Part shown: positions 1-31,032 of the stretch, one piece after another
Numbering within the stretch: the stretch's first letter is position 1
Layout of the letters: each line of letters starts with the position of its first letter
Translations under genes and position numbers: made by a program
Source: an uncultured Bacteroidales bacterium
GTDB lineage: Bacteria; Bacteroidota; Bacteroidia; Bacteroidales; Paludibacteraceae
Length of the DNA: 32,000 nt
Direction of reading: 5' to 3'
Assembly: GCA_902774185.1 (NCBI GenBank)
Contig: CACYHE010000001.1
Location: forward strand, 108,332 to 140,331
Notes under the pieces: generated by a model
What the model saw: the letters and a program-made list of their open reading frames with translations, nothing else
The model's database searches: none
Told to the model about the DNA's origin: nothing

Positions 1-100
1 CGGTGTTGAACTGCGCGTGGCAAGTTGAAAATTGAAAATTGAAAATTGAAAGGAAGATGAATAGGAATAATCCTTTCACCTTTAACCTTTCACCTTTCAT
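1..100 (-). CDS. N-terminal end of a secreted protein or lipoprotein gene that runs off the left edge; only the signal peptide is visible
   Basis: ATG (minus) at 98-100 opens MKGERLKVKGLFLFIFLSIFNFQFSTCHAQFNT..., which is open to position 1. It has a basic n-region, a hydrophobic h-region and a C/AxA-like cleavage context. It is absent from the ORF track because it is under 60 aa in the window. Confidence 0.5.
   Translation of the reverse strand, partial: MKGERLKVKGLFLFIFLSIFNFQFSTCHAQFNT
25..52. repeat. Heptamer tandem array ttgaaaa x4 (sense/minus strand ttttcaa)
   Basis: Read directly: ttgaaaa ttgaaaa ttgaaaa ttgaaag. It encodes the h-region LSIFNFQFS of the partial CDS. About 30 nt match array 16228-16255 with 1 mismatch. 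Confidence 0.95.
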
Positions 101-130
101 CCTATGTGTCCTTTCACCTTTCACCGTTCA
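72..130. repeat. Heptamer array cctttca, 4 + 3 units split by a 10-nt spacer (sense tgaaagg)
   Basis: cctttca cctttaa cctttca cctttca / tcctatgtgt / cctttca cctttca ccgttca. The start codon of the partial CDS sits at the spacer edge (98-100). Confidence 0.95.
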
Positions 131-2459: not shown

Positions 2460-3536
2460 TTAGTCTCTCATTAAATCTTCTATAATGCGGTTGAGCAGAT
2501 GGATCCCTTGCTGCGTAGCGATGACGCGGTTGTTCTTTATTTGCAACAAACCGGCTTCCAATAGGTCGTCGATGTCCCCGTCTATATCTTCCCTTGCCAC
2601 ACCTTGGCATGTTCGTAAACCCAACATTATGTGTTCGTTATAGCGGTCGGTTTCGGTGAGGGTCTCTTGTTCCCGAATGAGTGTCCCGTCTTCGATGCCG
2701 CGTATGTAAGCATCCAAGTCATCGGGGTTCCAACTGCGTACATTCCTTATATAACTATGCGCGCCTGCGCCCACGCCTACGTAGGGGGTGTTGTTCCAAT
2801 AACTGCCGTTATGCTGCGAGGCGTATCCGGGTAAGGCGAAGTTACTCACCTCATAATGGACGAATCCCGCCTGCTGTAAGCGCTCACACAGATAGTCGTA
2901 CATCGCATTCTCCGTGTCCTCGTCGATCGCCTTAATTCGTTCATTCATTAATTCATTATACAAGGCCGTACCGGGTTCGTACATCAAGCCGTAACACGAT
3001 ATATGTCGGATGCCGAGTGTCAATGCGGTCTCGATGTCCGCTTTCCATTGGTCCATCGTCTGCGTAGGCAAGGCGTATATCAGGTCGATGGATATATTGT
3101 CCAAGCCTGCTTCCTGTGCCATATGTACGGCATCGATGGCTTGCTGTGCATTATGTCTTCGTCCAATCAGTGTCAGCAAGTCATCTTGGAAGGACTGTAC
3201 GCCCATTGAGAGACGGTTGACACCCAAAGCACGCAAACCCTGCAGGTATTCCTTCGTGACATCGCCCGGGTTGACCTCCACCGTATATTCCGCTACCTGA
3301 TCCCTATTCAGCACGTGGTTAATACGGGTCATCGCTTCCAAGGACAAGGTGCTTGGCGTTCCGCCGCCTATATAGATCGTGCGGATCGGTTCGCCTGCTT
3401 CGTCCTGCCGTGCTTTTATCTCTTGGACCAATGCCGATACATACGCGTCCTGCCGCTCCAACCGGGTGGTGGAGAAGAAATCGCAATACAAGCAGCGCTT
3501 CTTGCAGAACGGAATATGTATATACAGACCGGACAA
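2460..3536 (-). CDS. hemW: Radical SAM heme chaperone HemW (HemN-like, coproporphyrinogen III oxidase family)
   Basis: The N-terminus MSGLYIHIPFCKKRCLYCDF carries the CxxxCxxC radical SAM motif, and a HemN_C-like tail follows. The start codon at 3534-3536 is TTG, the first start after an in-frame TAA. Confidence 0.9.
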   Translation of the reverse strand: MSGLYIHIPFCKKRCLYCDFFSTTRLERQDAYVSALVQEIKARQDEAGEPIRTIYIGGGTPSTLSLEAMTRINHVLNRDQVAEYTVEVNPGDVTKEYLQGLRALGVNRLSMGVQSFQDDLLTLIGRRHNAQQAIDAVHMAQEAGLDNISIDLIYALPTQTMDQWKADIETALTLGIRHISCYGLMYEPGTALYNELMNERIKAIDEDTENAMYDYLCERLQQAGFVHYEVSNFALPGYASQHNGSYWNNTPYVGVGAGAHSYIRNVRSWNPDDLDAYIRGIEDGTLIREQETLTETDRYNEHIMLGLRTCQGVAREDIDGDIDDLLEAGLLQIKNNRVIATQQGIHLLNRIIEDLMRD

Positions 3537-3570
3537 TTTATGATTTATGATTTATGATTTATGATTTGTG
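3536..3570. repeat. Heptamer array atttatg x5 (sense cataaat)
   Basis: atttatg x4 followed by atttgtg. It fills the hemW-rarA junction and contains the rarA TAA stop (3559-3561) and its last 3 codons. It abuts the hemW TTG start. Confidence 0.95.
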
Positions 3571-4782
3571 CCAAAACTCTGTGCCGACGAGTTCATCGGG
3601 TAAGTACTGCTGCGCTACCCAATGGTTCGGGTAATCATGCGGGTACAAGTACCCGTCGGCGTACCCGAGATCTTTCATCAAACTCGTCGGAGCGTTACGC
3701 AGGTGTAAGGGAACGGGTAGGTTACCCGTCTCACGCACTTTAGCCAAGGCATCGTCGATGGCCAAATAAGCGGAGTTATCTTTCTTGCAGGTAGCCAGAT
3801 AGATGGTTGTCTCTGCCAAGGGGATACGTCCTTCGGGCCAACCGATCTTATTCACCACATCGAAGCAAGTGTTGGCGAGTAACATCGCATTGGGGTTCGC
3901 CAAACCGATATCTTCGCTTGCCAGAATGACGAGTCGCCGTGCAATGAACTTCGGATCCTCCCCGCCTTCTATCATGCGTGCCAACCAGTAGATGGCAGCT
4001 TGCGGATCGCTACCCCGAACGGACTTGATGAAGGCAGAGATGATGTCGTAGTGCATCTCGCCGTCCTTGTCGTACGCGACGGGGTTCTGTTGTAACTGTT
4101 TGGTGACCGTCTCATTATCAATGATTTTCGCACCGCTGTTACTTACCAGTTCGATGATATTGAGTAGCTTGCGTGCGTCACCTCCACTATACCGCAAGAG
4201 TGCCTCGGTTTGTTTGACTTCGATATGAAGCGAACGGATGATCTCATCTTTGGTGAAGACGCGGTTGAGCAGTTCCATCAGGTCCTCTTTGTCGAGCGAC
4301 TTGAGGACATAGACCTGACACCGGCTGAGGAGCGGGGTGATCACTTCGAAAGACGGGTTCTCGGTCGTGGCACCGATAAGGGTGATCGTTCCTTCTTCCA
4401 CCGCACCCAAGAGGCTGTCCTGTTGGGATTTGGAGAAACGGTGGATCTCATCGATGAAGAGGATGGGGGAACGACTGTCCGCAGGCGCAAAGAGACCGCT
4501 GTTGATGGACGCAGTGCGTTTGGCTTTGTCAATGACGTCCCGTACTTCCTTCACGCCGCTCGTGACCGCACTGAGGGTGTAGAAAGGTCGTTGCAGTTGG
4601 TGCGCGATGATACGGGCAAGGGTTGTCTTACCTACACCCGGAGGTCCCCATAAGATGAAACTGGCGATATTTCCGCTCTCTATCATCTGACGAAGGATGG
4701 CTCCTTGTCCCACCAAATGGCGTTGACCTATGTATTCGTCCAGCGTCTTCGGACGCATGCGTTCTGCTAATGGCAAACTCAT
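3559..4782 (-). CDS. rarA: Replication-associated recombination protein A (AAA+ ATPase RarA/MgsA)
   Basis: Walker [10 protein letters not shown], Walker [11 protein letters not shown] and an MgsA_C-like C-terminal domain. ATG at 4780-4782. Confidence 0.93.
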
Positions 4783-4815
4783 TTATGATGTACGATTTAC
4801 GATGTACGATTTAAT
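4781..4815. repeat. Heptamer array with a 14-bp super-unit (atttacg atgtacg)
   Basis: atttatg atgtacg atttacg atgtacg atttaat. It contains the rarA ATG (4780-4782), the recN TAA (4797-4799) and the recN C-terminal residues LNRTS. Confidence 0.95.
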
Positions 4816-6379: not shown

Positions 6380-6409
6380 CTTTCAACTTTCAACTTTAAA
6401 CTTTCAACT
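6380..6409. repeat. Heptamer array ctttcaa x4 (sense ttgaaag), recN leader
   Basis: ctttcaa ctttcaa ctttaaa ctttcaa ct. Positions 6379-6409 are identical (31 nt) to 9024-9054 inside aroE. Confidence 0.95.
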
Positions 6410-6436: not shown

Positions 6437-7343
6437 CATACGTTGCCTGCCGGGTGGCATCGATATCCATCAGCAGGTCATACACTGTTTTCTTCTCTTT
6501 GTCCGTTCCTTTGCTGAAGATATCCACCAACTCATCGGCTTTGGCGTCCAGGAAAGTGTTGATGACGTAGGTAGCGGGACGGGAACGATAGGCCTCTTTG
6601 AGCACCGGAATGCCTTCGGCGATACGTGCTCTGCCGTTGGTGGCATTGGCACTCATCTCGTCCAAACCCAAACGGTGGTACTCGTAATAGAAATTGCGGT
6701 ATTTCTTGAAAGACTCATCCAAGAGGTTATTAATCAGCGCGTAACGGTTTCGGTTACTGTTAAACGCCGTCCATCCTTTCTGTTCCTTATCGTCCATGCT
6801 CACACCTTGGCAGAGGGTGACGATCTGTTCGCATTGCTGGAAGAACGGGGTGCCGCCTAAACGCTGAAAACTATCGCAGTCATGCCCGATGATGAGATAA
6901 CAGTAGTACGCCAACATCGCCGTGAGGTTGGTAGAGAATGTGTTCTGCTGCCACTCGATGCGGTCAAACTCCTCGTACGTGAAATTGAAGTTTTCATCCC
7001 GGAAGTTGAGGAGCGGGGTGGTGTAGGTCGTGCCAAAGACGGGACGACGGCTCTGTAGTGTCATCTCGCAAAGGTACAGGTTGTCCTGCACGGCTTTTAC
7101 AACAAGTAACATGCTGCACTCGATTTTCTCATGCTCCGCAAAGGTCATGTTGGTCCATCGGTTCTGGTTCATGTACTCTTCGATGGCGGTCTTGAGGGTG
7201 GCAAAGGCCTGTTTGTTCGAACCCTCTATCTGATCCGAGTTCACCGTGACCGTGCATTTGAGTTCCTGGGCATGAAGGGGAGCACAGAACACAGAACACA
7301 GAACACAGACCGATAATGCTATGTATCTAAATTTTAAAATCAT
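6417..7343 (-). CDS. DUF4835 family protein (PorD-like), secreted
   Basis: Signal peptide MILKFRYIALSVCVLCSVFCAPLHA/QE followed by a VTVNSDQIEGSNKQAF...NQNRWT block typical of DUF4835. Its position next to recN is the usual Bacteroidota synteny. The family name is from memory. Confidence 0.8.
   Translation of the reverse strand: MILKFRYIALSVCVLCSVFCAPLHAQELKCTVTVNSDQIEGSNKQAFATLKTAIEEYMNQNRWTNMTFAEHEKIECSMLLVVKAVQDNLYLCEMTLQSRRPVFGTTYTTPLLNFRDENFNFTYEEFDRIEWQQNTFSTNLTAMLAYYCYLIIGHDCDSFQRLGGTPFFQQCEQIVTLCQGVSMDDKEQKGWTAFNSNRNRYALINNLLDESFKKYRNFYYEYHRLGLDEMSANATNGRARIAEGIPVLKEAYRSRPATYVINTFLDAKADELVDIFSKGTDKEKKTVYDLLMDIDATRQATYDRINGN
7283..7310. repeat. Heptamer array cacagaa x4 (sense ttctgtg)
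   Basis: cacagaa x3 followed by cacagac. It encodes VCVLCSVFC, the h-region of the DUF4835 signal peptide. Confidence 0.95.
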
Positions 7344-7366
7344 AAATCTAAAATCTCAAATATCAA
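7325..7366. repeat. Degenerate heptamer array atctaaa-type x6
   Basis: atctaaa ttttaaa atcataa atctaaa atctcaa atatcaa. It spans the DUF4835 start (7341-7343) and the junction to the DUF4831 stop. Confidence 0.8.
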
Positions 7367-8453: not shown

Positions 8454-9170
8454 TCAATTATTCCAAATCTTCCAAGCTTCTTTGGCTTGACCTGTTAACA
8501 TCTCTATTCCGTTCTGCGTTCGGACACCTTGTGCTTTGCCTTTACGCAAGAAGAGGGTCTCTTCGGGGTTGTAGATACAATCGTACAACAAATGTTGTGC
8601 CGAAAGGTGTTCGTAGGGTATCGGCGGACAAGTATCGATATCCGGATACATGCCTAATGGCGTACAGTTGACGATGACCGTATGGCGGTTCATGATGTCG
8701 GAATCCAAATCGTCGTACGTCAAGGTTCCTTCTGCAGCATGCCTACTGACAAGGGTAGGGACGATCCCTAACAGCCGTAACGCATAGCACACGGCTTTGG
8801 CGGCACCGCCAGTACCTAACACCAAGGCCTGTCGGTCTTGTTTGTGCAACAATGGTCTTATCGATTCCATGAATCCGATATAGTCGGTGTTGTAACCGGT
8901 TCGTTGATACACCACGTTTACGGCGCCTATCGCTTGTGCCGTCGGGTCGATACGATTCAGGTACGGGATAATCGCCTGTTTATACGGATACGTCACATTA
9001 AACCCGTCCAAATCGGACAAAAGTCTTTCAACTTTCAACTTTAAACTTTCAACTCTCGTTGGGTACAACGAGTACTCCGCCTCTATGCCTTCTGTCGCAA
9101 ATTTCTGATTGAAGAACTGCGCAGAGAACGAGTGTTCCAATGGAAATCCTATGATACCGAAGTGACGCAT
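8454..9170 (-). CDS. aroE: Shikimate dehydrogenase
   Basis: MRHFGIIGFPLEHSFS, GFNVTYPYK, GAVN and the NADP-binding GTGGAAKAV motif. It contains a translated heptamer array at 9025-9054 (RVESLKLKVER). Confidence 0.9.
   Translation of the reverse strand: MRHFGIIGFPLEHSFSAQFFNQKFATEGIEAEYSLYPTRVESLKLKVERLLSDLDGFNVTYPYKQAIIPYLNRIDPTAQAIGAVNVVYQRTGYNTDYIGFMESIRPLLHKQDRQALVLGTGGAAKAVCYALRLLGIVPTLVSRHAAEGTLTYDDLDSDIMNRHTVIVNCTPLGMYPDIDTCPPIPYEHLSAQHLLYDCIYNPEETLFLRKGKAQGVRTQNGIEMLTGQAKEAWKIWNN
9025..9054. repeat. Heptamer array ctttcaa x4, translated inside aroE
   Basis: ctttcaa ctttcaa ctttaaa ctttcaa ct. It is read in frame as RVESLKLKVER. Confidence 0.95.
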
Positions 9171-10032: not shown

Positions 10033-10055
10033 CTAATCCACTAATCCACTAATCC
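10033..10055. repeat. Octamer array ctaatcca x2.9 (sense tggattag)
   Basis: ctaatcca ctaatcca ctaatcc. It lies at the tilS-ettA junction and contains the ettA TAG stop (10041-10043) and its last residues. Confidence 0.9.
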
Positions 10056-11719: not shown

Positions 11720-11749
11720 CTTTCAACTTTAAACTTTCAACTTTCAACT
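11720..11749. repeat. Heptamer array ctttcaa x4 (sense ttgaaag), ettA leader and folA 3' end
   Basis: ctttcaa ctttaaa ctttcaa ctttcaa ct. The flanks catttc...ctg are identical to those of array 6380-6409. Confidence 0.95.
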
Positions 11750-12422: not shown

Positions 12423-12689
12423 TTATTTCTTTTTACGTTGAATAAAATAAATTATGGTTGAAATGATAGCAACCGGAGCACCTACAAATATGCCTATGAA
12501 TCCACACGTACATGCGAAATAGACACAGCCACGTATCCATTTCGGGGCAAATCCCAAAGCATCTGAGGAATCATACCCAAGCACGACGCTAGCATAGGTT
12601 CCTATTCCTACGTATAGTAGAATACAAATAACAGTAACTACCCAAGAGGTAATCAATACTCGTTTTGCTATTTGTAGAGACTCGCTCAT
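12423..12689 (-). CDS. Small hypothetical membrane protein (88 aa, 2-3 predicted TM helices, KKK tail)
   Basis: The ORF has hydrophobic segments VLITSWVVTVICILLYVGIG and GFIGIFVGAPVAIISTIIYF. It sits 7 nt downstream of the GxxExxY gene, is visibly AT-rich, and has no family I recognise. Confidence 0.55.
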   Translation of the reverse strand: MSESLQIAKRVLITSWVVTVICILLYVGIGTYASVVLGYDSSDALGFAPKWIRGCVYFACTCGFIGIFVGAPVAIISTIIYFIQRKKK

Positions 12690-12696
12690 AATTGCA

Positions 12697-13140
12697 TCAA
12701 AACATATACATTACGCCATCCTTGGTATCCAAGTAGTAGTGTTCCGCTTGGTCCATGGGAGGGGCAAAGTTCCACAAAATACCGATCTGCTTGCCGGTCA
12801 GGCGCATGTAGTTCCACAGTTGCTGACGATGCTCCGCTACCAGTTTGTCCACCGCCTTGCACTCTATAATGACCTCATCATTAATCAGGAAATCTACGAA
12901 GTGCTTATGCTGTATGGGCTTGCCGTGAAAGACTACCGAGAAGTAGTACTCACGCTGGTAAGGTATCTGTTGCTCGTCCAGTAGAATCTGCAATGCTTCC
13001 TGATACATATACTCATTCAAGAAAGGTCCAAGCTCGCGGTGTACAGCAGCGCACGCACCATTGATGGCGTAGCATTTAGCCTTTAGTTGCTCGCACAACT
13101 CCGGGTGCTTGTCTATCAATCTTTTCAGCGTATATTGCAT
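12697..13140 (-). CDS. GxxExxY family protein (TIGR04256-like, PD-(D/E)XK nuclease-like fold)
   Basis: 147 aa. The HRELGPFLNEYMYQEAL segment followed by ...DFLINDEVIIECKAV... matches my memory of the multi-copy Bacteroidota GxxExxY family. Confidence 0.75.
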   Translation of the reverse strand: MQYTLKRLIDKHPELCEQLKAKCYAINGACAAVHRELGPFLNEYMYQEALQILLDEQQIPYQREYYFSVVFHGKPIQHKHFVDFLINDEVIIECKAVDKLVAEHRQQLWNYMRLTGKQIGILWNFAPPMDQAEHYYLDTKDGVMYMF

Positions 13141-13168
13141 AATCGAAAAATGTTTTTTGTGTTTATGT

Positions 13169-13291
13169 CTGATTATTGATTTTTAATTCGAAGAATTTGG
13201 AAGATTATTTTGATAAAATGATTTGCAAATTTATTTGTGAAAGCAGTTTAGCAAAATAAGATTCGTATTGTCAAATAAAATCAATAATCAG
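13169..13291. repeat. 123-bp element bounded by a perfect 15-bp inverted repeat (MITE-like, E2); carries the likely GxxExxY promoter
   Basis: ctgattattgatttt (13169-13183) and aaaatcaataatcag (13277-13291) are exact reverse complements. The interior holds a minus-strand TTTG-N18-TAAATTTG. Confidence 0.5.
13226..13255 (-). promoter_or_regulatory. Probable promoter of the GxxExxY / small-membrane-protein pair
   Basis: The minus strand reads TTTG (13252-13255), N18, TAAATTTG (13226-13233), about 85 nt upstream of the ATG at 13140. Confidence 0.4.
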
Positions 13292-13353
13292 GGTTTTGTA
13301 TGTTTTTTTCTTAAATTATCAATCAGTGTTTTATATGTTTTTTTCCTTCAAAT
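13281..13353. repeat. Tandem imperfect duplication of about 37 bp just downstream of the thyA stop
   Basis: tcaataatcagggttttgtatgtttttttcttaaatt versus tcaatcagtgttttatatgtttttttccttcaaat. The first copy includes the right inverted-repeat arm of element 13169-13291. Confidence 0.7.
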
Positions 13354-13354
13354 T

Positions 13355-14203: not shown

Positions 14204-16294
14204 CTAGTATAGTTTATACGTTGTTTTGAGTACCTTGAACTCGGTACGACGGTTGATCTGGTTGCAGATCTCTTGTTTGTCAATCGGCAGACTGTTGATG
14301 AACGTCTCGTCCAGCACTTGCTCAACCGGTATCCACGGATATTGCTTGTTAAGCGCCTTGTCTGCCACCACCGGTTTGGTTTTACCGTATCCTACCGGCG
14401 TCAGACGTTCTTTCTCAATACCGTGTTGGATGAGGTAGTCACAGCAACTCTGTGCACGTTTCTGACTTAACTCGTTGTTGAACTCGTCCGTACCCTTCAA
14501 GTCCGTATGGGCACTGAGCTCAATGGTGATATTGGGGTTGTCGTTAAGCAGTTTAACCAATTTCTCCATCTCTTTCTCCGAGGCCTGCGTCAACTCCCAT
14601 CGACCGAACTCATAGAACACATTCTCCATCGTGACGGGTCGGCTAATCGGTTGCAGCACAAAGTCCATCGTGTAGGTCTTGCTGTCCTTCAAACCGAAGG
14701 TGTTCCATTGCTCTTTGGCGTTCAGATAACCTCTGGCGGTGACTAACATGACGTACTTGACGTCTTGTTGCAGTTTGATCTTGTACTTACCGTCCCGACG
14801 GGCGTTGAGTTTACTGTTCGTGCCGTCGGATCCCACAATACGCAACATGGCGTCGGCGATAGGATTGCCCAAACCGTCGTTCACCGTCCCTTGTGCTATG
14901 AACTCCATCTCAGGCAAGGTAAACTGGTAGATCTTATCCATCCCTTTCTTATCGCCTCGGTTGGAGGAGAAGAAACCGTTCTGACTGTTTCCGGCAAAAG
15001 TGATACCGAAGTCATCGCCGGCTCCGTTGAAGGGCGCCCCCATGTTAAACAGGATCCACACGACGCTGTCTTTGTAGGTCGTGTCACGTGTGGCTTTGAA
15101 GATATCCAGACCTCCGTAACCCGGATGACCGTTCGAGGCAAAATAGAGCGTACCGTCAGCGTGTACATAAGGGAACATCTCATCGGCACTCGTGTTGATT
15201 CCGGCTTCCAAAGGATGCGCGTTCACCCATTGGTTTTCTGCCAACTCCGCCATCCAGATATCTTTTCCTCCTTGACCGCCCGGTGCATCACTGGCGAAAT
15301 AGAGCGTGTCACCCATCGGACTGAGCGCAGGATGACCCACCGTGATCGTACTGTCGGTAAATAGTTTGACTTCCTGTGCTTCGCCCCATTCACCGCTTGC
15401 CCGTTCACTACAGTAGATCTTAGCACCCAGATCCTGACCGTTGATAGGCTTGGAGTAAGTGAAATACATCATCCTGCCGTCCTTGGTAAAGCAGCACGCA
15501 CCCATCTCTGCGTTCGCTCCGCCTTTACCACTGGTCGAGTCATTCTGTTGTTCCTCTTCCTCTTGATCCCCGTACAAACCCTCTGCCGGTTCTATCTCTT
15601 CCCATTCTCCGGCTGCGTTCTTGCGTGTCTGGTAGAGTTGGAAAAGCTGTTGACCCGTCACGTTACTGGCGCGTTTGAGTTTTTTCGTTCCCTTCTCTTT
15701 GGACTCCTGCCGGTTTGATGTGAACATGAGTGCGTCGTTTTGATCACCGATGAACATCGGGGCGAAGTTACTGCTGCGTTTCTTGTTAAACATCTTCGCT
15801 TCGCTTACCTTGTACCGGCTGGTCTCTTTCTTCCACTCGTCCATCTTCGTGCAAGCGTACTTGCCGGCCTGCGCTACATAGTCATCGGGATGGGCTTCCA
15901 GATAGGAATCGTAGTGCTTGATGGCATCTTTGTATTTACCTTGGTTCTGCAGCACTTGTGCGGCATGCAGGTAAATCGTCGAGTCCTGTAACTGGTACTT
16001 ACAACGCAATGCACTCTGGTAAGCATTAGCAGCACGGGGATTATTGATATAGCGGTAACACTCCGCCTGACGGTAAGCGACGTAGCCCTTCAAGTCCCGT
16101 TGCTTCTGCGTACTGAGCCGACTATAACAGGACTTGTAGATCTCTCCGGCCGCATAGTACTCCCCGATGGCGTATTTCTTATCCGCCCGCTTGATACGTT
16201 GCTGGATAGAGCACCCGCTCAGAAGAATTGAAAATTGAAAAATGAAAATTGAAAGGAGAAAACCTTTCACCTTTGACCTATCACTTTTCAACAT
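14204..16294 (-). CDS. OmpA-family lipoprotein with TPR, TolB-like beta-propeller, CarboxypepD_reg-like and OmpA C-terminal domains
   Basis: Lipobox LLSGC, TPR-like AECYRYINNPRAANAYQSAL, WD40-like repeats (YFASD/YFASN), and a C-terminal OmpA motif (LSAHTDLKGTDEFNNELSQKRAQS). I chose the ATG at 16292-16294 (MLKSDRSKVKGFLL...). The track start at 16315 is a GTG inside a repeat. Confidence 0.88.
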   Translation of the reverse strand: MLKSDRSKVKGFLLSIFIFQFSILLSGCSIQQRIKRADKKYAIGEYYAAGEIYKSCYSRLSTQKQRDLKGYVAYRQAECYRYINNPRAANAYQSALRCKYQLQDSTIYLHAAQVLQNQGKYKDAIKHYDSYLEAHPDDYVAQAGKYACTKMDEWKKETSRYKVSEAKMFNKKRSSNFAPMFIGDQNDALMFTSNRQESKEKGTKKLKRASNVTGQQLFQLYQTRKNAAGEWEEIEPAEGLYGDQEEEEQQNDSTSGKGGANAEMGACCFTKDGRMMYFTYSKPINGQDLGAKIYCSERASGEWGEAQEVKLFTDSTITVGHPALSPMGDTLYFASDAPGGQGGKDIWMAELAENQWVNAHPLEAGINTSADEMFPYVHADGTLYFASNGHPGYGGLDIFKATRDTTYKDSVVWILFNMGAPFNGAGDDFGITFAGNSQNGFFSSNRGDKKGMDKIYQFTLPEMEFIAQGTVNDGLGNPIADAMLRIVGSDGTNSKLNARRDGKYKIKLQQDVKYVMLVTARGYLNAKEQWNTFGLKDSKTYTMDFVLQPISRPVTMENVFYEFGRWELTQASEKEMEKLVKLLNDNPNITIELSAHTDLKGTDEFNNELSQKRAQSCCDYLIQHGIEKERLTPVGYGKTKPVVADKALNKQYPWIPVEQVLDETFINSLPIDKQEICNQINRRTEFKVLKTTYKLY
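16228..16255. repeat. Heptamer array ttgaaaa x4 (sense ttttcaa)
   Basis: ttgaaaa ttgaaaa atgaaaa ttgaaag. It encodes LSIFIFQFS of the OmpA-family lipoprotein signal peptide. Confidence 0.95.
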
Positions 16295-16328
16295 ATATTT
16301 CCTTTCACTTTTCACCTTTCACCTTTCA
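16263..16328. repeat. Heptamer array cctttca, 4 + 4 units split by a 10-nt spacer (sense tgaaagg)
   Basis: cctttca cctttga cctatca cttttca / acatatattt / cctttca cttttca cctttca cctttca. The spacer carries the ATG at 16292-16294. The last unit carries the DUF1015 TGA stop (16326-16328). Confidence 0.95.
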
Positions 16329-17615
16329 ATTTAGCTCGTGGATTACCAATCCCGAGCGTAACTTGGGTTCAAACCATGTGGTCTTGGGCGGCATGATATT
16401 GCCGCTATCGGCGATGTCGATGATCTGCTGCATGGTAACGGGGTAGAGCGCCAAAGCCACTTTCATCTCTCCGCTATCCACTCTCTGCTTCAACTCGCCC
16501 AGACCACGGATACCGCCTACGAAGTCGATTCGTTTGTCCGTACGCAGATCTTTGATGCCAAGGATCTTATCCAGAATAAGATTACTCGATATCGTAACAT
16601 CCAGCACACCTATCGGGTCCGCATCATTATAGCGTCCCTCCTTAGCGGTCAACGAGTACCACTTCCCGCCCAGATACAGGCTGAAGTTGTGCAGCGCTTT
16701 GGGTTTTACATCATTAAGCACGGAGGATTGCCTGTGGCCATCCGAATCGAGCAAGTCACCATTATAACATTCAACAATGAAGTCCTTATTAAGGGCTTCG
16801 AGGAACTCCTCCTCGCTAAGTCCGTTCAGGTCTTTTACCACACGGTTATAATCGATGATATTGAGTTGATTATCCGGGAAACAAACGGCTAAGAAATACT
16901 CGTACTCAGGAACCTTAATTTTTAATTTTTCATTTTTAATTTTTAATTCCTGTCCTACGCCAGCCGCCGCAGCTGAACGATGGTGTCCGTCAGCGATGTA
17001 CATCGCCGGAATCTCCGCAAAGATCTCGGTGATACGATCAATCGTCTTTTTGTCCTCAATGATCCAGAACGTGTGACGGAATCCTTCCGGAGCGGCTACG
17101 AAGTCATACTCCGGTGTGCCCTTGGTTACTTCTGCAACGATAGCATCAAGGTCGTCCCGGTGAGGGTAGGCGAAGAATACCGGTTCCATGTTCGCGTTCA
17201 GCGTACGTACATGTTTCATGCGGTCTTCCTCTTTGTCCTTACGCGTCAACTCATGTTTCTTAATGCGTCCCTCCAGATAGTCATCTACCCAAGCGCCGAC
17301 AACCAAACCATACTGCGTCTTGCCAAAACCCGTTTGCGCGTAAACGTAGTATTTCTCCTCTTGGTCTTGTTCCAACCAACCTTTGACACGAAAACGCTTG
17401 TATTGTGACAACGCCTCCTGATACACACGAGGGTCATGCTCATCGGTACCGGGTTCAAAATTGATCTCCGGCTTGATGATATGATACAGACTCATCTCGT
17501 TGCCTTCCGCTTCCTGACGTGCCTCCTCGGAGTTCAATACGTCATACGGCCGACTACTCACTTTGGTCACCAACTCTTTCGGTGGCCGTATTCCCTTAAA
17601 TGGTTTTATCTTCAT
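16326..17615 (-). CDS. DUF1015 family protein
   Basis: MKIKPFKGIRP..., the ADGHHR motif, and 429 aa. It contains a translated heptamer array at 16915-16949 (ELKIKNEKLKIK). Confidence 0.88.
   Translation of the reverse strand: MKIKPFKGIRPPKELVTKVSSRPYDVLNSEEARQEAEGNEMSLYHIIKPEINFEPGTDEHDPRVYQEALSQYKRFRVKGWLEQDQEEKYYVYAQTGFGKTQYGLVVGAWVDDYLEGRIKKHELTRKDKEEDRMKHVRTLNANMEPVFFAYPHRDDLDAIVAEVTKGTPEYDFVAAPEGFRHTFWIIEDKKTIDRITEIFAEIPAMYIADGHHRSAAAAGVGQELKIKNEKLKIKVPEYEYFLAVCFPDNQLNIIDYNRVVKDLNGLSEEEFLEALNKDFIVECYNGDLLDSDGHRQSSVLNDVKPKALHNFSLYLGGKWYSLTAKEGRYNDADPIGVLDVTISSNLILDKILGIKDLRTDKRIDFVGGIRGLGELKQRVDSGEMKVALALYPVTMQQIIDIADSGNIMPPKTTWFEPKLRSGLVIHELN
16915..16949. repeat. Heptamer array ttaattt x5, translated inside the DUF1015 gene
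   Basis: ttaattt ttaattt ttcattt ttaattt ttaattc. The sense strand reads ELKIKNEKLKIK. Confidence 0.95.
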
Positions 17616-17620
17616 CGTTT

Positions 17621-17686
17621 GATTTACGATTTTATGATTTACGATTTTACGATTTATTAGACGATTTCGATAAATTTAACGATTTG
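17621..17686. repeat. gatttac/gattttac array (alternating 7/8 bp, 15-bp super-unit) grading into degenerate copies
   Basis: gatttac gattttat gatttac gattttac gatttattagac gatttc gataaatttaac gatttg. It lies directly upstream of the DUF1015 ATG. Confidence 0.9.
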
Positions 17687-17709
17687 TAGAAGACAATGGT
17701 CCAATTCTG

Positions 17710-17766
17710 TCAATTGATCAATTGATCAATCAATCGTCCAATCGTCAATCGTCCAATCGTCAATTA
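17710..17766. repeat. tcaattga x2 followed by a caatcgtc/caatcgt array (7/8 alternation, 15-bp super-unit x2)
   Basis: tcaattga tcaattga tcaat caatcgtc caatcgt caatcgtc caatcgt caatta. It ends at the bactofilin TAA (17764-17766). Confidence 0.9.
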
Positions 17767-18126: not shown

Positions 18127-18140
18127 AATATAATTATTTA

Positions 18141-18161
18141 TCAATTGTCAATTATCAATTA
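18141..18161. repeat. Heptamer array tcaattg/tcaatta x3
   Basis: tcaattg tcaatta tcaatta. It lies at the bactofilin-esterase junction and contains the esterase TGA stop (18155-18157). Confidence 0.85.
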
Positions 18162-18901
18162 TTGAAAAGTTTCGGCAAGAAACGTTTCAAATACTCTTGC
18201 CAATTCGGCCATACATGACCGTCCGTACTCTCGTAATACGTGTACTCCACATGCTCTTTTTCAAGCCATTTGCGGTACTCCTGAAAACTATCCCACAGAA
18301 AATCCTCCGTACCGATACCCAACCAGAACACTTTCGCGTCTTTCGGAGCATTATGAACGAACGTAGCCGGCGAGAACATTCCTACATACGCAAATTGTCC
18401 TTCCAACACATAGGACACCCGCATCGTGTGGTAACCACCCATTGAGAGACCGGCGATCGCGCGTTGCTCGGGATCCGTGCAGATACGGTATTTCGACTCT
18501 GTCTCCTTCATGAAAGCACCGAAGTTCGCTTCCCATTGACCGTTGGACGCGTTCTCTCTCTCTTCCTCCGAAGTAGGCCTGCTCGGACAGTTATCCGGCA
18601 TCACGACAACCATCTCACGTATCTCGCCTGCGCGTAGAAGGGAGTCCATAATAGGCACTAATCGACCCTGTGTGGTCCAGTCGAACTCATTTCCCCACAT
18701 CCCGTGTTGCAGATAGAGCACCGGAAAGACCTCCGTACGTGCTGCGTACTGATCCGGCAGATAGACACAGCAGGGCACGCCGTTCAAGGTGTCTTGTACC
18801 ACCGTACCGGCCTGTAACGGCCTGTCTTCCACCTGTTTCGCACATGCTATACTCATGCACGCGATACCTATCAGATAGGCACTAAAAATCCATTTCTTCA
18901 T
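18155..18901 (-). CDS. Esterase family alpha/beta hydrolase, lipoprotein or secreted
   Basis: Signal peptide MKKWIFSAYLIGIACMSIAC, the GLSMGG nucleophile elbow, and a PF00756-like layout. Start at ATG 18899-18901. The upstream track extension reads through the promoter. Confidence 0.85.
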   Translation of the reverse strand: MKKWIFSAYLIGIACMSIACAKQVEDRPLQAGTVVQDTLNGVPCCVYLPDQYAARTEVFPVLYLQHGMWGNEFDWTTQGRLVPIMDSLLRAGEIREMVVVMPDNCPSRPTSEEERENASNGQWEANFGAFMKETESKYRICTDPEQRAIAGLSMGGYHTMRVSYVLEGQFAYVGMFSPATFVHNAPKDAKVFWLGIGTEDFLWDSFQEYRKWLEKEHVEYTYYESTDGHVWPNWQEYLKRFLPKLFNN

Positions 18902-18922: not shown

Positions 18923-18954
18923 CAAAGGTACGACTTTTTTTTGACATACGCAAG
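18923..18954 (-). promoter_or_regulatory. Bacteroidota sigma-A type promoter of the esterase gene
   Basis: The minus strand reads cTTGcgtatgtcaaaaaaaagtcgTAccTTTGc. The -7 box TACCTTTG (18923-18930) lies 21 nt upstream of the ATG. Confidence 0.7.
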
Positions 18955-20688: not shown

Positions 20689-20720
20689 CTTGCGTATGTC
20701 AAAAAAAAGTAGTAATTTTG
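20689..20720 (+). promoter_or_regulatory. Bacteroidota sigma-A type promoter of the SIMPL gene
   Basis: cTTGcgtatgtcaaaaaaaagtagTAatTTTGc. The -7 box TAATTTTG lies at 20713-20720. The 22-nt core is identical to the esterase promoter. Confidence 0.7.
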
Positions 20721-20738: not shown

Positions 20739-21425
20739 ATGAAAAATAATGTTTTTGCGGGCGCGTTGGTAGCGCTGGGTTTATGTCTTGGAGGTTTGTT
20801 CATTAACCTCGGTATTAATAAGTTTGCCTCGAAAGATCGGGCGGTGACGGTGAAGGGTCTGAGTACCCGTGAAGTGGAAGCGGACTATGCCGTTTGGCCT
20901 TTGTCGTTTGCATGGAGCGGAAATGATCTGCCGGCACTCTATACGAAGTTGGAACAAGTGACCGAGCGGGTGAAGAACCATCTGCAGTCCCTGGGCTTTG
21001 AGGAAGCCGATATCCGGCAGGGTAGTGTGTCGGTTAGCAATAACTGGGACGGATACTACGGTAATCGTCCGGAATTCAAATATACGCTGAGTACGTCGCT
21101 TATCGTTTCGACCGATAAAGTGGCGTTGGTTGTGGCGAGTCAAGGAAAGGAATCCGCTTTGCTCAAAGAGGGAATCATCGTGACTACAGAGAAATGGAAT
21201 CTGGATTACCAGTTCAACGGTCTGCCTGAGTTGAAGCCGTCGATGATCGAAGAGGCAACGCGTAATGCCCGTGCGGTCGCACAGAAATTTGCGGACGATG
21301 CCCAATGTAACTTGGGTTCGATCCGTCAAGCCAGCCAAGGACAGTTCTCCATCGAGTCCGACCAGTACCAGCCTTGGCGCAAACATGTACGCGTCGTGAC
21401 GACCGTTGATTATTATCTCAATTAA
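20739..21425 (+). CDS. SIMPL domain-containing protein (DUF541)
   Basis: MKNNVFAGALVALGLCLGGLFINLG (TM anchor) followed by DRAVTVKGLSTREVEADYAVWPL, typical of Bacteroidales SIMPL proteins. ATG at 20739, 19 nt after a TAATTTTG -7 box. Confidence 0.85.
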   Translation: MKNNVFAGALVALGLCLGGLFINLGINKFASKDRAVTVKGLSTREVEADYAVWPLSFAWSGNDLPALYTKLEQVTERVKNHLQSLGFEEADIRQGSVSVSNNWDGYYGNRPEFKYTLSTSLIVSTDKVALVVASQGKESALLKEGIIVTTEKWNLDYQFNGLPELKPSMIEEATRNARAVAQKFADDAQCNLGSIRQASQGQFSIESDQYQPWRKHVRVVTTVDYYLN

Positions 21426-21454
21426 GAATTAAGAATTACGAATTAAGAATCAAA
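21420..21454. repeat. Heptamer array aattaag x5, gyrA leader
   Basis: aattaag aattaag aattacg aattaag aatcaaa. It contains the SIMPL TAA stop (21423-21425) and ends 11 nt before the gyrA ATG. Confidence 0.95.
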
Positions 21455-25383: not shown

Positions 25384-25805
25384 TGGGTCGCATTCTCGCA
25401 ATAGATTACGGTCGTAAACGCACAGGATTAGCCGTTACGGATATTCTCCGCATAACGGCTAATCCGTTGCTTACGATTGAGACGAAGGATTTGATAAACT
25501 GGTTGACGGGCTACTTCGCTAAAGAAGCTGTTGACGAAGTGGTTATCGGTCATCCGACCCAGATGAACGGTACAGAATCGGAGTCGATGAATTATATCCG
25601 ACCGTTCATGGGCGTATTTAAAAAGACGTTTCCAGACAAACCTATAACTATGTATGACGAGCGCTTCACGTCGGTATTGGCGCACAGGGCAATGATTGAC
25701 GGGGGAATGAAGAAAAAAGACCGACAGGACAAAGCGGTAGTGGATAAGATCGCCGCATGTATCATCCTCGAGGGTTACCTCGAGAAGTTGAAAGTTGAGA
25801 GTTGA
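25383..25805 (+). CDS. ruvX: Holliday junction resolvase-like protein RuvX (YqgF)
   Basis: MGRILAIDYGRKRTGLAV and DERFTS motifs. TAATG overlap with the upstream gene. Its TGA stop at 25803-25805 lies inside array 25788-25815. Confidence 0.9.
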   Translation: MGRILAIDYGRKRTGLAVTDILRITANPLLTIETKDLINWLTGYFAKEAVDEVVIGHPTQMNGTESESMNYIRPFMGVFKKTFPDKPITMYDERFTSVLAHRAMIDGGMKKKDRQDKAVVDKIAACIILEGYLEKLKVES

Positions 25806-25815
25806 AAGTTGAAAG
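25788..25815. repeat. Heptamer array ttgaaag x4 on the plus (sense) strand
   Basis: ttgaaag ttgagag ttgaaag ttgaaag. It encodes the ruvX C-terminus KLKVES plus its TGA stop. This is the same unit family as 6380, 9025 and 11720, again in sense orientation. Confidence 0.95.
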
Positions 25816-26962: not shown

Positions 26963-27531
26963 TGTTTGTAATCGGCAATAACACATTAGTCAGTCTGGAC
27001 GTACTTGAAAAAGAGTTCTGCTGTGACCTGGATACCTGTCGGGGGTGTTGCTGTATCGAAGGCGATGCCGGTTGTCCTATTACCGATGAGGAAGTAGTAC
27101 AGATAAAGCAGATCTTACCGCAACTGTTGCCGCAGATGACCAAAGAAGCACGGGAAGTAGTTGAACAACAGGGACTTAGTTATCTGGACCCTTCCGGAGA
27201 ACAAGTGCTCTCTATCGTGAACGGAAAGGATTGTGTTTTTGCCCGTATCGATCATCAAGGCTGGTGTTACTGTTTGATAGAGAAAATGGGATTTTCCAAA
27301 CCGATATCGTGTCATCTGTATCCGATACGGCTGACTAAAGTAGGAGACTATACTGGCGTGGAGTACCATCGTTGGGATATCTGTCATTGTGCCCGGCTGA
27401 AAGGAAAAAAACTGCATTTGCCGCTCTATCAGTTCTTGAAAGAACCACTAATACGTCGTTTTGGGCAGGCATGGTATGATGAATTGGAACTAACGGCTAA
27501 TGAATGGAAAAAACAATGCGCGCAGAGATAA
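26962..27531 (+). CDS. DUF3109 family protein (Cys-rich)
   Basis: FCCDLDTCRGCCCIEGDAGCP is characteristic of DUF3109. TAATG overlap with mntP. Confidence 0.85.
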   Translation: MFVIGNNTLVSLDVLEKEFCCDLDTCRGCCCIEGDAGCPITDEEVVQIKQILPQLLPQMTKEAREVVEQQGLSYLDPSGEQVLSIVNGKDCVFARIDHQGWCYCLIEKMGFSKPISCHLYPIRLTKVGDYTGVEYHRWDICHCARLKGKKLHLPLYQFLKEPLIRRFGQAWYDELELTANEWKKQCAQR

Positions 27532-28748
27532 TTACGATAGGAGATGAACTGCTGATCGGTCAGGTGGTGGACACCAACTCCGCTTGGATGGCCCAGCGAT
27601 TGAATGAGCAAGGTATTGAACTATACCGGATTACGTCCGTTCATGACGATAAGGCACAGATCATAGATGCCTTAGATGCTGCATTTAACGAAGTGGATAT
27701 CGTGTTGACGACCGGCGGTTTGGGTCCGACCAAAGATGATATCACCAAGCAGGTGTTATGCGATTATTTCCATACGCACCTTATAGAAGATACGCGTGTG
27801 CGTACGCATATAGAGGAACTCTATCGTGATCGTCCGGACGTGTTGAACCGACTGACCGCTACGCAATGGCAAGTGCCTGCTTGTGCCGAGATTCTGGAGA
27901 ATCGGGTAGGGTCCGCTCCGCTGATGGTTTTTAAGAAGGATGACAAGCTGCTTATCACTATGCCCGGTGTGCCTTACGAGATGAAGATCGCGATGGAGGA
28001 ACAAATTCTGCCGTTTATAGAGTCGAAAGTCGAAAGTCAAAAGTCGAAAGCCATTATCCATAAGACGCTGCAGGTGACGGGTATCGCAGAGAGTTCGTTG
28101 GCGATCTTACTGGAGGACTTTGAGAACCGAATGCCTTCGTCCTTGCACTTGGCGTATTTACCCAAAGACGGGGTGATCCGTTTGCGTTTGTCGAGTTACG
28201 GCGATATGACAGAAGAAGAGGTGACACGTTGGTTTGATGAGTTGAAACAGTTGACGGCTGATTATCTGATCGCCGATACCGATGAACCGCTTGAAGTGAT
28301 TGTAGGCAATGTGTTAAAAGCCAAAGGCATGACCATCTCCACTGCCGAGAGTTGTACAGGCGGTAAACTGGCTTCATTACTCAATAAGCATGCCGGTTCG
28401 TCTGCTTTCTATTGGGGTTCGGTCATCAGTTATGACAACTCCGTCAAGGTGCAGGTCTTAGGCGTTCCGGCAGAACTGATAGAAAAGTACGGCGTAGTAA
28501 GCGAAGAGGTGGTACGTGTGATGGCACAGTCTGTTCGCAAACTAACCAATACTACTTGTAGTATTGCTACATCCGGTATCGCAGGACCATCCGGTGGTTC
28601 GAAAACCAAGCCGGTTGGTACCGTTTGGATGGCTTGGGACACGCCTAAAGGGACGTTTGCGGAGTGTTTTCATTTAGGCAAACTGCGTGAACAGGTAACC
28701 GACAGAGCATGCCAGAAAGCATTGATAGGATTATTAAAACATATTTAA
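27516..28748 (+). CDS. cinA: CinA family protein (competence/damage-inducible; NMN deamidase-type C-terminal domain)
   Basis: MRAEIITIGDELLIGQVVDTNS (MoCF_biosynth domain) and a C-terminal ESCTGG CinA domain. An alternative ATG at 27504 would add MEKT. It contains a translated array at 28021-28048 (ESKVESQKSK). Confidence 0.9.
   Translation: MRAEIITIGDELLIGQVVDTNSAWMAQRLNEQGIELYRITSVHDDKAQIIDALDAAFNEVDIVLTTGGLGPTKDDITKQVLCDYFHTHLIEDTRVRTHIEELYRDRPDVLNRLTATQWQVPACAEILENRVGSAPLMVFKKDDKLLITMPGVPYEMKIAMEEQILPFIESKVESQKSKAIIHKTLQVTGIAESSLAILLEDFENRMPSSLHLAYLPKDGVIRLRLSSYGDMTEEEVTRWFDELKQLTADYLIADTDEPLEVIVGNVLKAKGMTISTAESCTGGKLASLLNKHAGSSAFYWGSVISYDNSVKVQVLGVPAELIEKYGVVSEEVVRVMAQSVRKLTNTTCSIATSGIAGPSGGSKTKPVGTVWMAWDTPKGTFAECFHLGKLREQVTDRACQKALIGLLKHI
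28021..28048. repeat. Heptamer array agtcgaa x4, translated inside cinA
   Basis: agtcgaa agtcgaa agtcaaa agtcgaa. It reads ESKVESQKSK. The unit differs by one base from gttgaaa (TGA becomes CGA). Confidence 0.95.
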
Positions 28749-31000: not shown

Positions 31001-31032
31001 TTTGCACATATCAAAAAAAAATTGTAATTTTG
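31001..31032 (+). promoter_or_regulatory. Bacteroidota sigma-A type promoter of the Lrp/AsnC gene
   Basis: TTTGcacatatcaaaaaaaaattgTAatTTTGc. The architecture is the same as the two promoters above: TTGC-N2-AT-N-TCAAAAAAAA-N2/3-GTA-N2-TTTGC. Confidence 0.65.

Follow-up and report, generated by a model that had tools for sequence, protein, structure and literature searches.

The closest known counterparts of the repeats described in this work include the heptamers of the cyanobacterial short tandemly repeated repetitive (STRR) sequences and the LSSR5-11 class, and there are also the Rickettsia palindromic elements (RPE), which are reportedly 100-150-bp palindromes of unique sequence inserted within genes. 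Heptamers are the commonest long-unit simple sequence repeats in bacteria, and sets of TAACTGA direct repeats have been described in Beggiatoaceae, cyanobacteria, and some Bacteroidetes, including Paludibacter; such sets comprise 2-6 heptamers in the forward orientation just upstream of start codons, carry stop codons in three frames and sometimes overlap the stop codon of the upstream gene (MacGregor 2015, PMC4679880). In Haemophilus influenzae, (ATCTTTC)n repeats of variable unit number are localized in the 5' untranslated region of hmw1A and hmw2A, within a long hairpin cut by RNase III (PMC12721329), while CTCTT coding repeats in the leader peptide of the Neisseria opa genes switch these genes on and off by frame (PMC3745409). 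PARCEL elements are described, in the part of the source considered here, as palindromic coding repeats (PMC2996958). In this study, a block of about 100 bases composed of three runs of 7-base repeats was analyzed, which lies between a DUF1015 gene and a gene for an OmpA-family lipoprotein in a 32,000-nt stretch of DNA (hereafter the window; contig CACYHE010000001.1, positions 108,332 to 140,331) of an uncultured rumen Paludibacteraceae bacterium. We consider it likely that this gene junction is a hypervariable slot, that the region represents one of its alleles, and that a family of heptamer-array palindromes has been co-opted there as a 5' gene cassette.

The block, further referred to as copy B, occupies positions 16228-16328 of the window and is read on the minus strand. 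It is situated between the DUF1015 gene (16326-17615, minus strand; Pfam E = 5e-108), the stop codon of which is inside the module, and the 696-aa OmpA-family lipoprotein gene (14204-16294, minus strand), whose product contains PD40, CarboxypepD_reg, and OmpA domains according to Pfam; this lipoprotein and its close relatives were found in rumen metagenomes and in metagenome-assembled genomes (MAGs) named as Paludibacteraceae. The minus-strand reading confirmed to the base the tripartite layout proposed in the first-pass annotation of this DNA. An upstream non-coding purine array (TGAAAGG TGAAAGG TGAAAAG TGAAAGG; 16301-16328) is followed by the 10-nt spacer AAATATATGT (16291-16300) with an ATG inside (16292-16294), a second purine array (TGAAAAG TGATAGG TCAAAGG TGAAAGG; 16263-16290) encoding the basic n-region LKSDRSKVKG, a 7-nt linker TTTTCTC (16256-16262) constituting the loop of a short hairpin, and a T-rich array (CTTTCAA TTTTCAT TTTTCAA TTTTCAA; 16228-16255) encoding the hydrophobic h-region LSIFIFQFS. 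Downstream of the latter, the sequence reads TTCTTCTGAGCGGGTGC, and the lipobox L-S-G-C (CTG AGC GGG TGC) is at 16211-16222. When reverse-complemented, the T-rich array matches the purine arrays imperfectly. In the window, TGAAAGGTGAAAGG and TTTTCAATTTTCAA, with at most two mismatches allowed, have 19 and 13 matches against 0.25 and 0.46 expected, respectively, and none of 100 shuffles reached either count.

The upstream array carries TGA in all three frames, and the TGA of its first unit (16326-16328) is the stop codon of the DUF1015 open reading frame (ORF), in accordance with what had been claimed. The removal of the in-frame stop also held true: the sole unit with a TGA position in frame with the ATG reads TCAAAGG in copy B (TGA changed to TCA). 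We likewise found the previously noticed 7-bp inverted repeat, TGAAAGG/CCTTTCA around a 6-nt loop, but the predicted fold favours pairing of the upstream array with the T-rich array. Moreover, the last upstream unit and the spacer together make AAGGA-N5-ATG, and the suggested likeness to a Shine-Dalgarno element stands as a sequence fact, since AAGGA is found 5-8 nt before the start in both copy B and copy A (see below); its function stays putative. The Rfam scan of the whole window indicated no family at the gathering threshold.

Translation from the ATG of copy B gives MLKSDRSKVKGFLLSIFIFQFSILLSG↓C (the arrow marks the predicted cleavage site). The predicted leader is composed of MLKSDRSKVKG (net charge +3), FLLSIFIFQFSILL (mean Kyte-Doolittle hydropathy of about 2.5), and LSGC, and it therefore has a positive n-region, a hydrophobic h-region, and a lipobox, i.e., the sequence features by which a Sec/signal peptidase II (SPII) lipoprotein signal peptide was recognized in this work (charged n-region, h-region of about 7-22 residues, lipobox [LVI][ASTVI][GAS]C). 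The cysteine of copy B aligns exactly with the lipobox cysteine of more than 100 orthologues, and the mature start CSIQQRIKRADKK is common to more than 100 orthologues at about 80% identity, each having an SPII-type leader with the cysteine at the same position. The lipobox, which had been ascribed to the peptide of the module, is indeed present in frame, but it belongs to the gene and not to the cassette, because orthologues with other signal peptides share the same LSGC.

No ATG, GTG, or TTG was found in frame between the T-rich array and the cysteine, and all in-frame start codons sit inside the block, hence the h-region must be array-encoded and a start codon beyond the arrays, considered earlier as a counter-indication, does not exist. 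The candidate starts are ATG 16294 (used by public gene calls, giving 696 aa), GTG 16315, TTG 16291, and GTG 16270 (16268-16270). That the third unit has lost its in-frame TGA points, short of proof, to a start upstream of that unit. We infer from these sequence features that translation would start at ATG 16294 and that the module peptide would be a functional signal peptide.

A second member of the same module family, copy A, is localized at 25-130 (minus strand) before the gene of a TPR protein which runs off the window. It comprises the upstream array (110-130), spacer (100-109) with the ATG (98-100), second array (72-99), linker (53-71), and T array (25-52), all on the minus strand; its in-frame unit reads TTAAAGG, the peptide begins MKGERLKVKG...LSIFNFQFSTCHAQ, and the predicted signal peptide is MKGERLKVKGLFLFIFLSIFNFQFSTCHA↓Q. 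Copy A was claimed to have the same architecture and reading frame as copy B, and both the layout and the frame match, but its upstream array has three units and not four. The TAA of the preceding PBP1a gene (133-135) sits 2 nt before this array and thus outside it.

To find further copies, one genome per species (185,579 species) was scanned at the DNA level with the pattern GGTGAAAGG-N3..30-CCTTTCAATTTTCA. This resulted in 42 matches in 40 loci, against about 0.5 expected (an estimate from pattern length), with up to 9 matches per MAG, and all of them but two were in rumen Bacteroidales/Paludibacteraceae MAGs. About 25 copies are in the LSIF frame (C CTT TCA ATT TTC) and are followed by ORFs of 160-790 codons. 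These in-frame copies precede 15 different genes, all with envelope-type products, which, as assigned with Pfam, are the OmpA-lipoprotein, an Omp85/POTRA protein, a DUF5686 protein with CarbopepD_reg, two different TPR proteins, an M23 peptidase, a protein with a weak Wzi-like match, a DUF6048 protein, two outer-membrane beta-barrels, an FKBP, an S41/PDZ protease, and three groups without Pfam hits. Most of the predicted peptides end (S/T)(T/I)C-x-A↓Q and the remainder in a lipobox; the C-x-A↓Q ends fit cleavage by signal peptidase I and the Q-rule of Bacteroidetes (PMC5837995). The remaining copies, mainly from MAG Tb.RUG.288, do not code for protein and have the form of (TGAAAGG)n-loop-(CCTTTCA)n hairpins situated after genes. 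A profile search of a 5.8-billion-protein set with the alignment of module signal peptides returned 36 short spurious ORFs and no long proteins, and provides no census.

Copies at different genes share irregular DNA features which the peptide does not demand, and this makes them homologous, not convergent. They have in common the spacer GGAC-A(C/T)ATA-(A/G)G, and the stop-free unit TTAAAGG occupies the third position in 18 of the 24 distinct coding copies aligned, with TTAACGG, TTAATGG, or TCAAAGG at that position in three more (L006, L039, and L026 have no such unit there; compared sequences are given by L numbers and protein clusters by P numbers). Furthermore, there are two linker subfamilies, each tied to the FNFQFS or the FIFQFS variant, and 22 of the 24 copies have a T array of four units, the fourth being degenerate in the other two (L008 and L033). 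The reading frame is intact in all of the approximately 27 coding copies and all 7 copy-B sequences. Independent birth of each copy by slippage was considered and rejected on account of the shared irregular features. As to why such DNA can be read as a leader, each frame of (GGTGAAA)n meets a TGA, a GTG one unit on, and the next TGA two units after that; a single substitution of TGA to TTA therefore opens a reading window of exactly four units, MKGERLKVKG. Codons of the purine array specify K, E, R, and G, whereas the complementary codons specify F, L, I, and S, residues of opposite hydropathy, and it is for this reason that a purine/pyrimidine array palindrome reads "charged then hydrophobic", as a signal peptide does.

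The orthologues do not share a signal peptide. Before the conserved mature start, 75 distinct leaders were found among 120 OmpA orthologue clusters, and in the case of the TPR protein of copy A there are 76 distinct signal peptides among 120 clusters, with the module in 15 of them. The mature OmpA of the module-bearing P0003 is 100% identical to those of P0022 and P0023 and 99.7% identical to that of P0033, and these three have three other leaders; similarly, the L010p mature protein and that of P0038 are 99.1% identical, and the leader of P0038 is again a different one. The closest different orthologue of the window protein (P0002, 86%) is also without the module. Vertical descent of the module together with the gene was rejected, given P0002 and the 100% identical strains which lack it. 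Together with the start-codon analysis and the further copies, the orthologue comparison speaks for the view of the module as a portable cassette, which its distribution supports.

Short-patch recombination carries the copy-B variant from one species to another. Four species-level lineages share the module DNA at 100% identity, against about 75% for the coding DNA next to it. In the comparison of L002 with the window, which covers 16 kb of synteny, the longest exact match is 162 nt (the module and the last 48 nt of DUF1015) and the next one 41 nt; for L010 these values are 120 nt (module region) and 42 nt, and for L005 102 nt (module region, limited by the contig) and 28 nt. The comparison of L002 with its sister strain L048 over 4.6 kb revealed five isolated substitutions, one short substitution cluster, and the patch, a pattern indicating that the L002 lineage acquired copy B through recombination of a short patch, the donor being window-like or a third party. 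An assembly artefact was rejected, as the same junctions are present in independent assemblies (ENA, JGI, and GenBank MAGs).

The anatomy, the distribution of copies, the swapping of alleles, and the recombination patch are direct observations, and the following reading would account for them. The allele is built from two heptamer arrays, (TGAAAGG)n and (TTTTCAA/CCTTTCA)n, which are imperfect reverse complements. The block ends the upstream DUF1015 gene with TGA in every frame and would supply an A-rich leader and a start codon; the purine array would then encode a Lys/Arg-rich n-region, the single in-frame TGA having been mutated away, and the T-rich array encodes the hydrophobic h-region, which runs on in frame into the lipobox LSG↓C contributed by the gene itself. 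An ordinary Sec/SPII lipoprotein precursor would result, its mature part being unchanged. The module family would have been recruited before about 15 different envelope-protein genes, and at a given locus the module would spread between strains and species via short-patch recombination, competing with other heptamer-array alleles. The arrays themselves presumably originate by slippage or template switching.

Several points weigh against the interpretation of the module as a co-opted gene cassette. The module is not a unique device but a single family of the many heptamer-array alleles that share its architecture, and the word "portable" describes its distribution and not a demonstrated mechanism. 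No terminal repeats with target-site duplications, transposase, or donor locus were found in the neighbourhoods inspected (whole genomes were not searched). The copy-B variant is not seen at any other locus and there is no transposition-like mobility: a metagenome scan with a copy-B-specific 25-mer gave only 3 contigs, all of the window's species and the same locus, with no length variants of the T array. The perfect conservation of the module across species could result partly from constraint at the nucleotide level and not from transfer alone. The start at ATG 16294 is putative, and either of the two GTG codons or the TTG listed above could be used as an alternative to it. Finally, the census is ascertained and incomplete, finding only copies that keep the GGTGAAAGG...CCTTTCAATTTTCA junction, and the comparison data come entirely from MAGs and metagenome contigs.

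The other alleles deserve a description of their own. Short tandem arrays occur at most gene junctions of the window, and over 369 kb of the clade 210 of 380 tandem arrays have a period of 7, the mode being 4-5 units and 27-33 nt. An array of about 30 nt is found at nearly every junction between co-oriented genes of the window; the period is 7, in some cases 8, and the units vary by junction. Such arrays are located at 3536-3567, 4781-4813, 6380-6409, 10033-10055, 11720-11749, 17620-17764, 18138-18162, 21420-21450, and 25785-25815, and the units are AAATCAT, ATCGTAA, TTGAAAG, GGATTAGT, AAATCGTA, AATTGAT, and AATTAAG. With most of them, each of the three frames meets a stop, and at these sites relatives show different arrays or lack an array. 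Stop-containing units were counted in 164 of 183 heptamer arrays versus about 152 expected from shuffled units, an excess which is not convincing given the ascertainment.

Array pairs of the same architecture as the module were found with entirely different units. In L054, of the window's own species, the copy-A slot is filled by (TTGACGA/TTAGACGA)×4, which gives the stops, a TTG start, and the n-region TIRR, and then by (TGTGTTC)×4 encoding SVCVLCSVLCV, while L052 and L053 have (AATGAAT)×4 followed by (TCTTTGC)×3. At 7283-7361 of the window, the start of the DUF4835 gene lies within (ATTTTAG)×5 and the predicted signal-peptide core SVCVLCSVFC comes from (TTCTGTG)×4; the leader of the L002 orthologue uses (TTGGCTG)×3.7. 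Among 151 distinct leaders, residue identity is 0.122 at offset 7 versus 0.075 at offset 6 and 0.076 at offset 8 (offset 2 is equally 0.122), and the value raised at offset 7 is the protein trace of the 7-nt DNA period. Two h-region motifs, CTLYSVLC from (TGTACTC)n and LCSV(F/L)C from (TTCTGTG)n, recur in both of the unrelated leader sets (P0001-P0120 and P0157-P0276), therefore several T-rich array families serve as shared building blocks of signal peptides. SPFTxHLSP, encoded by (CCTTTCA)n in another frame, also recurs in the leaders of both protein sets.

The same position may hold different array alleles in relatives. For aroE these are (TTGAAAG)×4 in the window and L002, (GGATGAAT)×4 in L003, and an ACGATT-type array in L047, and for a RluD-like gene (GGTGAAA)×4 in L002, (ATTCAGC)×4 in L046, and (GATTGAA)×4 in L047. 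Conversely, one array family may recur at several slots of a species, as TTGAAAG does at four sites of the window and AATGAAT at at least five sites in L010 and in L052. The bactofilin-DUF1015 spacer of the window (17620-17764) is itself an array palindrome, composed of (TTGACGA TTGGACGA)×2, a TCAATTGA centre, and a (AATCGTAA)-type array as imperfect reverse complement; the TTGACGATTRGACGA array of this spacer also fills the copy-A slot in L054.

Arrays are present within cytoplasmic enzymes as well, where they encode K/E-rich segments and would-be in-frame stops are mutated. Those identified in the window are in aroE (9025-9054, VESLKLKVER), DUF1015 (16915-16948, ELKIKNEKLKIK), the ORF 27504-28748 (at 28021-28050, ESKVESQKSK), and the HemN-like ORF 2460-3536 (at about 2925-2965, LYNELMNERIK). 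In the DUF1015 array, the in-frame unit has its stop removed (TAA to GAA), and in the HemN-like gene the array of the window corresponds to ordinary coding sequence of equal length in L054.

Considering this abundance, the module could be neutral debris of a slippage-prone genome, in which heptamer arrays would form and change wherever they do no harm (at junctions, in signal peptides, and in surface loops), and would then be the commonest tolerated array pair with no selected cassette function, which is possible, though in our opinion rather doubtful. It would agree with the predominance of period 7, with junction arrays that differ between relatives nearly everywhere, and with the arrays in frame in cytoplasmic enzymes. 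Direct signs of slippage also exist: (GGATTAGT)×3 of the window arose in place, since relatives have a single GGATTAG, and one-unit changes between strains occur. A general tendency of 5-11-nt repeats to expand has been reported (Mrazek 2007, as cited in PMC4679880). However, the spacer, TTAAAGG unit, and linker subfamilies common to copies at different genes identify these copies as homologous, and the 162-nt patch identical across species argues for transfer with a selective or drive advantage. Moreover, slippage by 7 nt shifts the frame of an ORF and cannot swap unit sequences between strains that are 99-100% identical, and in the HemN-like gene an array took the place of the same length of non-repeat coding DNA. 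The background can be accounted for by neutral slippage, which leaves the shared irregular features, the cross-species patch, and the equal-length overwrites without an explanation.

Tentatively, an active and so far undescribed process may be considered which writes or copies cassettes of about 30 nt (four-five heptamers) from a genome-wide array pool into fixed slots, often as an equal-length overwrite. Such slots would be situated at gene junctions, in signal-peptide regions, and in the surface loops of cytoplasmic enzymes, and the module would be the most visible product. Candidate writers are a polymerase capable of template switching, a retroelement, and a recombination system that has the arrays as its substrate.

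We regard it as similarly uncertain, and on the whole improbable as the principal explanation, that the module is an expression rheostat or RNA switch, in which the number of upstream units would set the hairpin length and thereby mRNA processing, stability, or translation, with the coding role secondary; as an added function, it would be compatible with the gene cassette. The predicted fold of copy B has -32.1 kcal/mol (z = -3.7), with the upstream array paired with the T array and the ATG in a 46-nt loop, that of copy A -40.3 kcal/mol (z = -4.9), and those of three further full copies z of about -3.3, so that all five fold beyond their shuffles (z from -3.2 to -4.9 for full copies overall). 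The copy B variants TGAAAAG and TTTTCAT turn what would be a G-U pair into A-U and a G-A mismatch into a G-U pair. The number of upstream units is variable (4 in the window, L002, and L049-51, and 9 in L010, with block duplications in L018, L021, and L022), non-coding copies are plain hairpins after genes, and the hmw unit is one base from ACCTTTC (PMC12721329). On the other hand, the purine arrays of the coding copies L029, L043, L039, and L006 have decayed, and the folds predicted for these copies do not surpass those of shuffles (z from -0.2 to -0.9); the four copies nevertheless keep the T array and the frame, hence the hairpin is not required for the coding use. Sister strains lack the module altogether, and complementarity follows automatically from purine-rich and T-rich coding. 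The predicted hairpin may be viewed as a property of the element and possibly a modulator.

A non-autonomous transposable element, similar to miniature inverted-repeat transposable elements or to repetitive extragenic palindromic (REP) sequences and having the arrays as terminal inverted repeats for a transposase, seems unlikely. The dispersed multi-copy distribution, the homology of copies, and the imperfect palindrome could be so explained, and L010 offers two further observations. A 38-nt core TTTTGCGATGCCGATACATGTTTCGCGAGATAGTC with AATGAAT flanks is inserted there into existing AATGAAT arrays in four places (about 2788, 3273-3900, and 7269, as compared with L052/L053), and a gene resembling, by eye, those of the four-helix-bundle proteins of 23S rRNA intervening sequences is located between (AATGAAT)n and inverted (ATTCATT/ATTAATC)n; arrays may be landing sites or ends of small mobile elements. 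Nevertheless, comparison of the filled with the alternative alleles of copy B indicated no target-site duplication, no transposase was found in the neighbourhoods inspected (whole genomes not searched), the ends differ between copies and the array numbers vary, and what is seen is replacement, not insertion. A phase-variation locus, in which slippage in the coding (TTTTCAA)n would switch the surface protein on and off, is very improbable, despite the repeats of a non-multiple of three in the leader-coding region of envelope proteins and the opa precedent (PMC3745409), because no frame-shifted allele occurs, at the assembly level, among the approximately 27 coding copies or 7 copy-B sequences, the T array is constant at four units in 22 of 24 coding copies and four units are short for frequent slippage, and housekeeping envelope genes (BamA-like, Ctp, FKBP) are unlikely contingency genes.

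Besides the arrays, the neighbourhood of the module is conserved, and the gene order bactofilin, DUF1015, OmpA, ThyA, DHFR, ABC-F, TilS, AroE, DUF4831, DUF4835, RecN, MgsA is kept in relatives. At 12423-13354, ThyA and DHFR are separated by a PDDEXK_3 (GxxExxY-type) gene and a hydrophobic ORF of 88 aa, adjoined by a 35-nt direct repeat (13286-13354); as ThyA and DHFR are adjacent in L002, L003, and L047, this region is an insertion. Another feature of the window is the motif TGCRYATRTCAAAAAAAA, present three times versus 0 expected, at 18935-18952 (minus strand), 20691-20708 (plus strand), and 31003-31020 (plus strand). Each copy is followed by GTAnnTTTGC, resembling the Bacteroidetes -7 element TAnnTTTG, and heads a transcription unit, and similar sequences are found in L047 and L052. 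It is probably a conserved promoter cassette.

The locus exemplifies a concrete route by which signal peptides may arise and be exchanged, namely from repetitive palindromic non-coding DNA and not through gradual divergence of leaders. It also reveals that gene starts and junctions are replaced very rapidly, in whole blocks, between strains with otherwise identical proteins. Protein-level comparisons of mature domains do not show this turnover, and in rumen MAGs it bears on gene calling, the annotation of start codons, and strain typing. The heptanucleotide-repeat phenomenon (cyanobacterial STRR, TAACTGA, and hmw) is hereby extended to an abundant gut and rumen clade, with a clear molecular readout. 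If active array writing proved true, it would be a new kind of localized genome editing in bacteria, whereby signal peptides and intercistronic regions would be continually rebuilt by a dedicated mechanism and not by slippage plus selection; the origin and the copying mechanism of the arrays could prove more novel than the module.

When confronted with the known systems, the module shares with RPE and, as far as the considered part of its description goes, PARCEL, the presence of dispersed palindromic DNA in frame in genes, adding peptide segments. In contrast to RPE, it is made of heptamer arrays and gives a predicted N-terminal export signal plus a stop and a start. Its non-coding copies, mainly those of Tb.RUG.288, resemble REP sequences and bacterial interspersed mosaic elements in being hairpins downstream of genes, but their stems are tandem heptamers and no transposase like the REP-associated tyrosine transposases was identified. 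Literature searches yielded nothing on the unit sequence or on tandem repeats of Paludibacteraceae, and we found no published description of an array module acting as a signal-peptide cassette across many genes, of strain-level swapping of array alleles at fixed slots, or of equal-length overwrites in enzyme genes.

As in opa, the hydrophobic part of an outer-membrane protein's signal peptide is encoded by tandem repeats with a unit length not divisible by three, but in the module neither copy-number change in the coding array nor out-of-frame alleles were seen, and variation proceeds by replacement of whole blocks. As in hmw, a heptamer array of variable unit number stands upstream of an envelope or adhesin gene, ACCTTTC, from which the hmw unit differs by one base, is the complement of GGTGAAA, and the array would be one arm of a hairpin, that of hmw being transcribed and that of the module predicted. 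The module differs in that its second arm is coding (the signal-peptide core), its arrays have 4-9 units versus 11 or more in hmw, and it is reused at many genes. Like the TAACTGA repeats, the module arrays are tandem, of few units, intergenic, directed toward a nearby start, and with stops in three frames; heptamers are the prevailing unit length in both cases, and Paludibacter belongs to the same bacterial family. There, however, one unit dominates a genome, whereas here dozens of units are in use and the unit sequence is different; furthermore, the description of those repeats (PMC4679880) does not include such a diversity of units, paired purine and T-rich arrays, signal-peptide coding use, or strain-level swapping, all of which are seen in the clade analyzed here.

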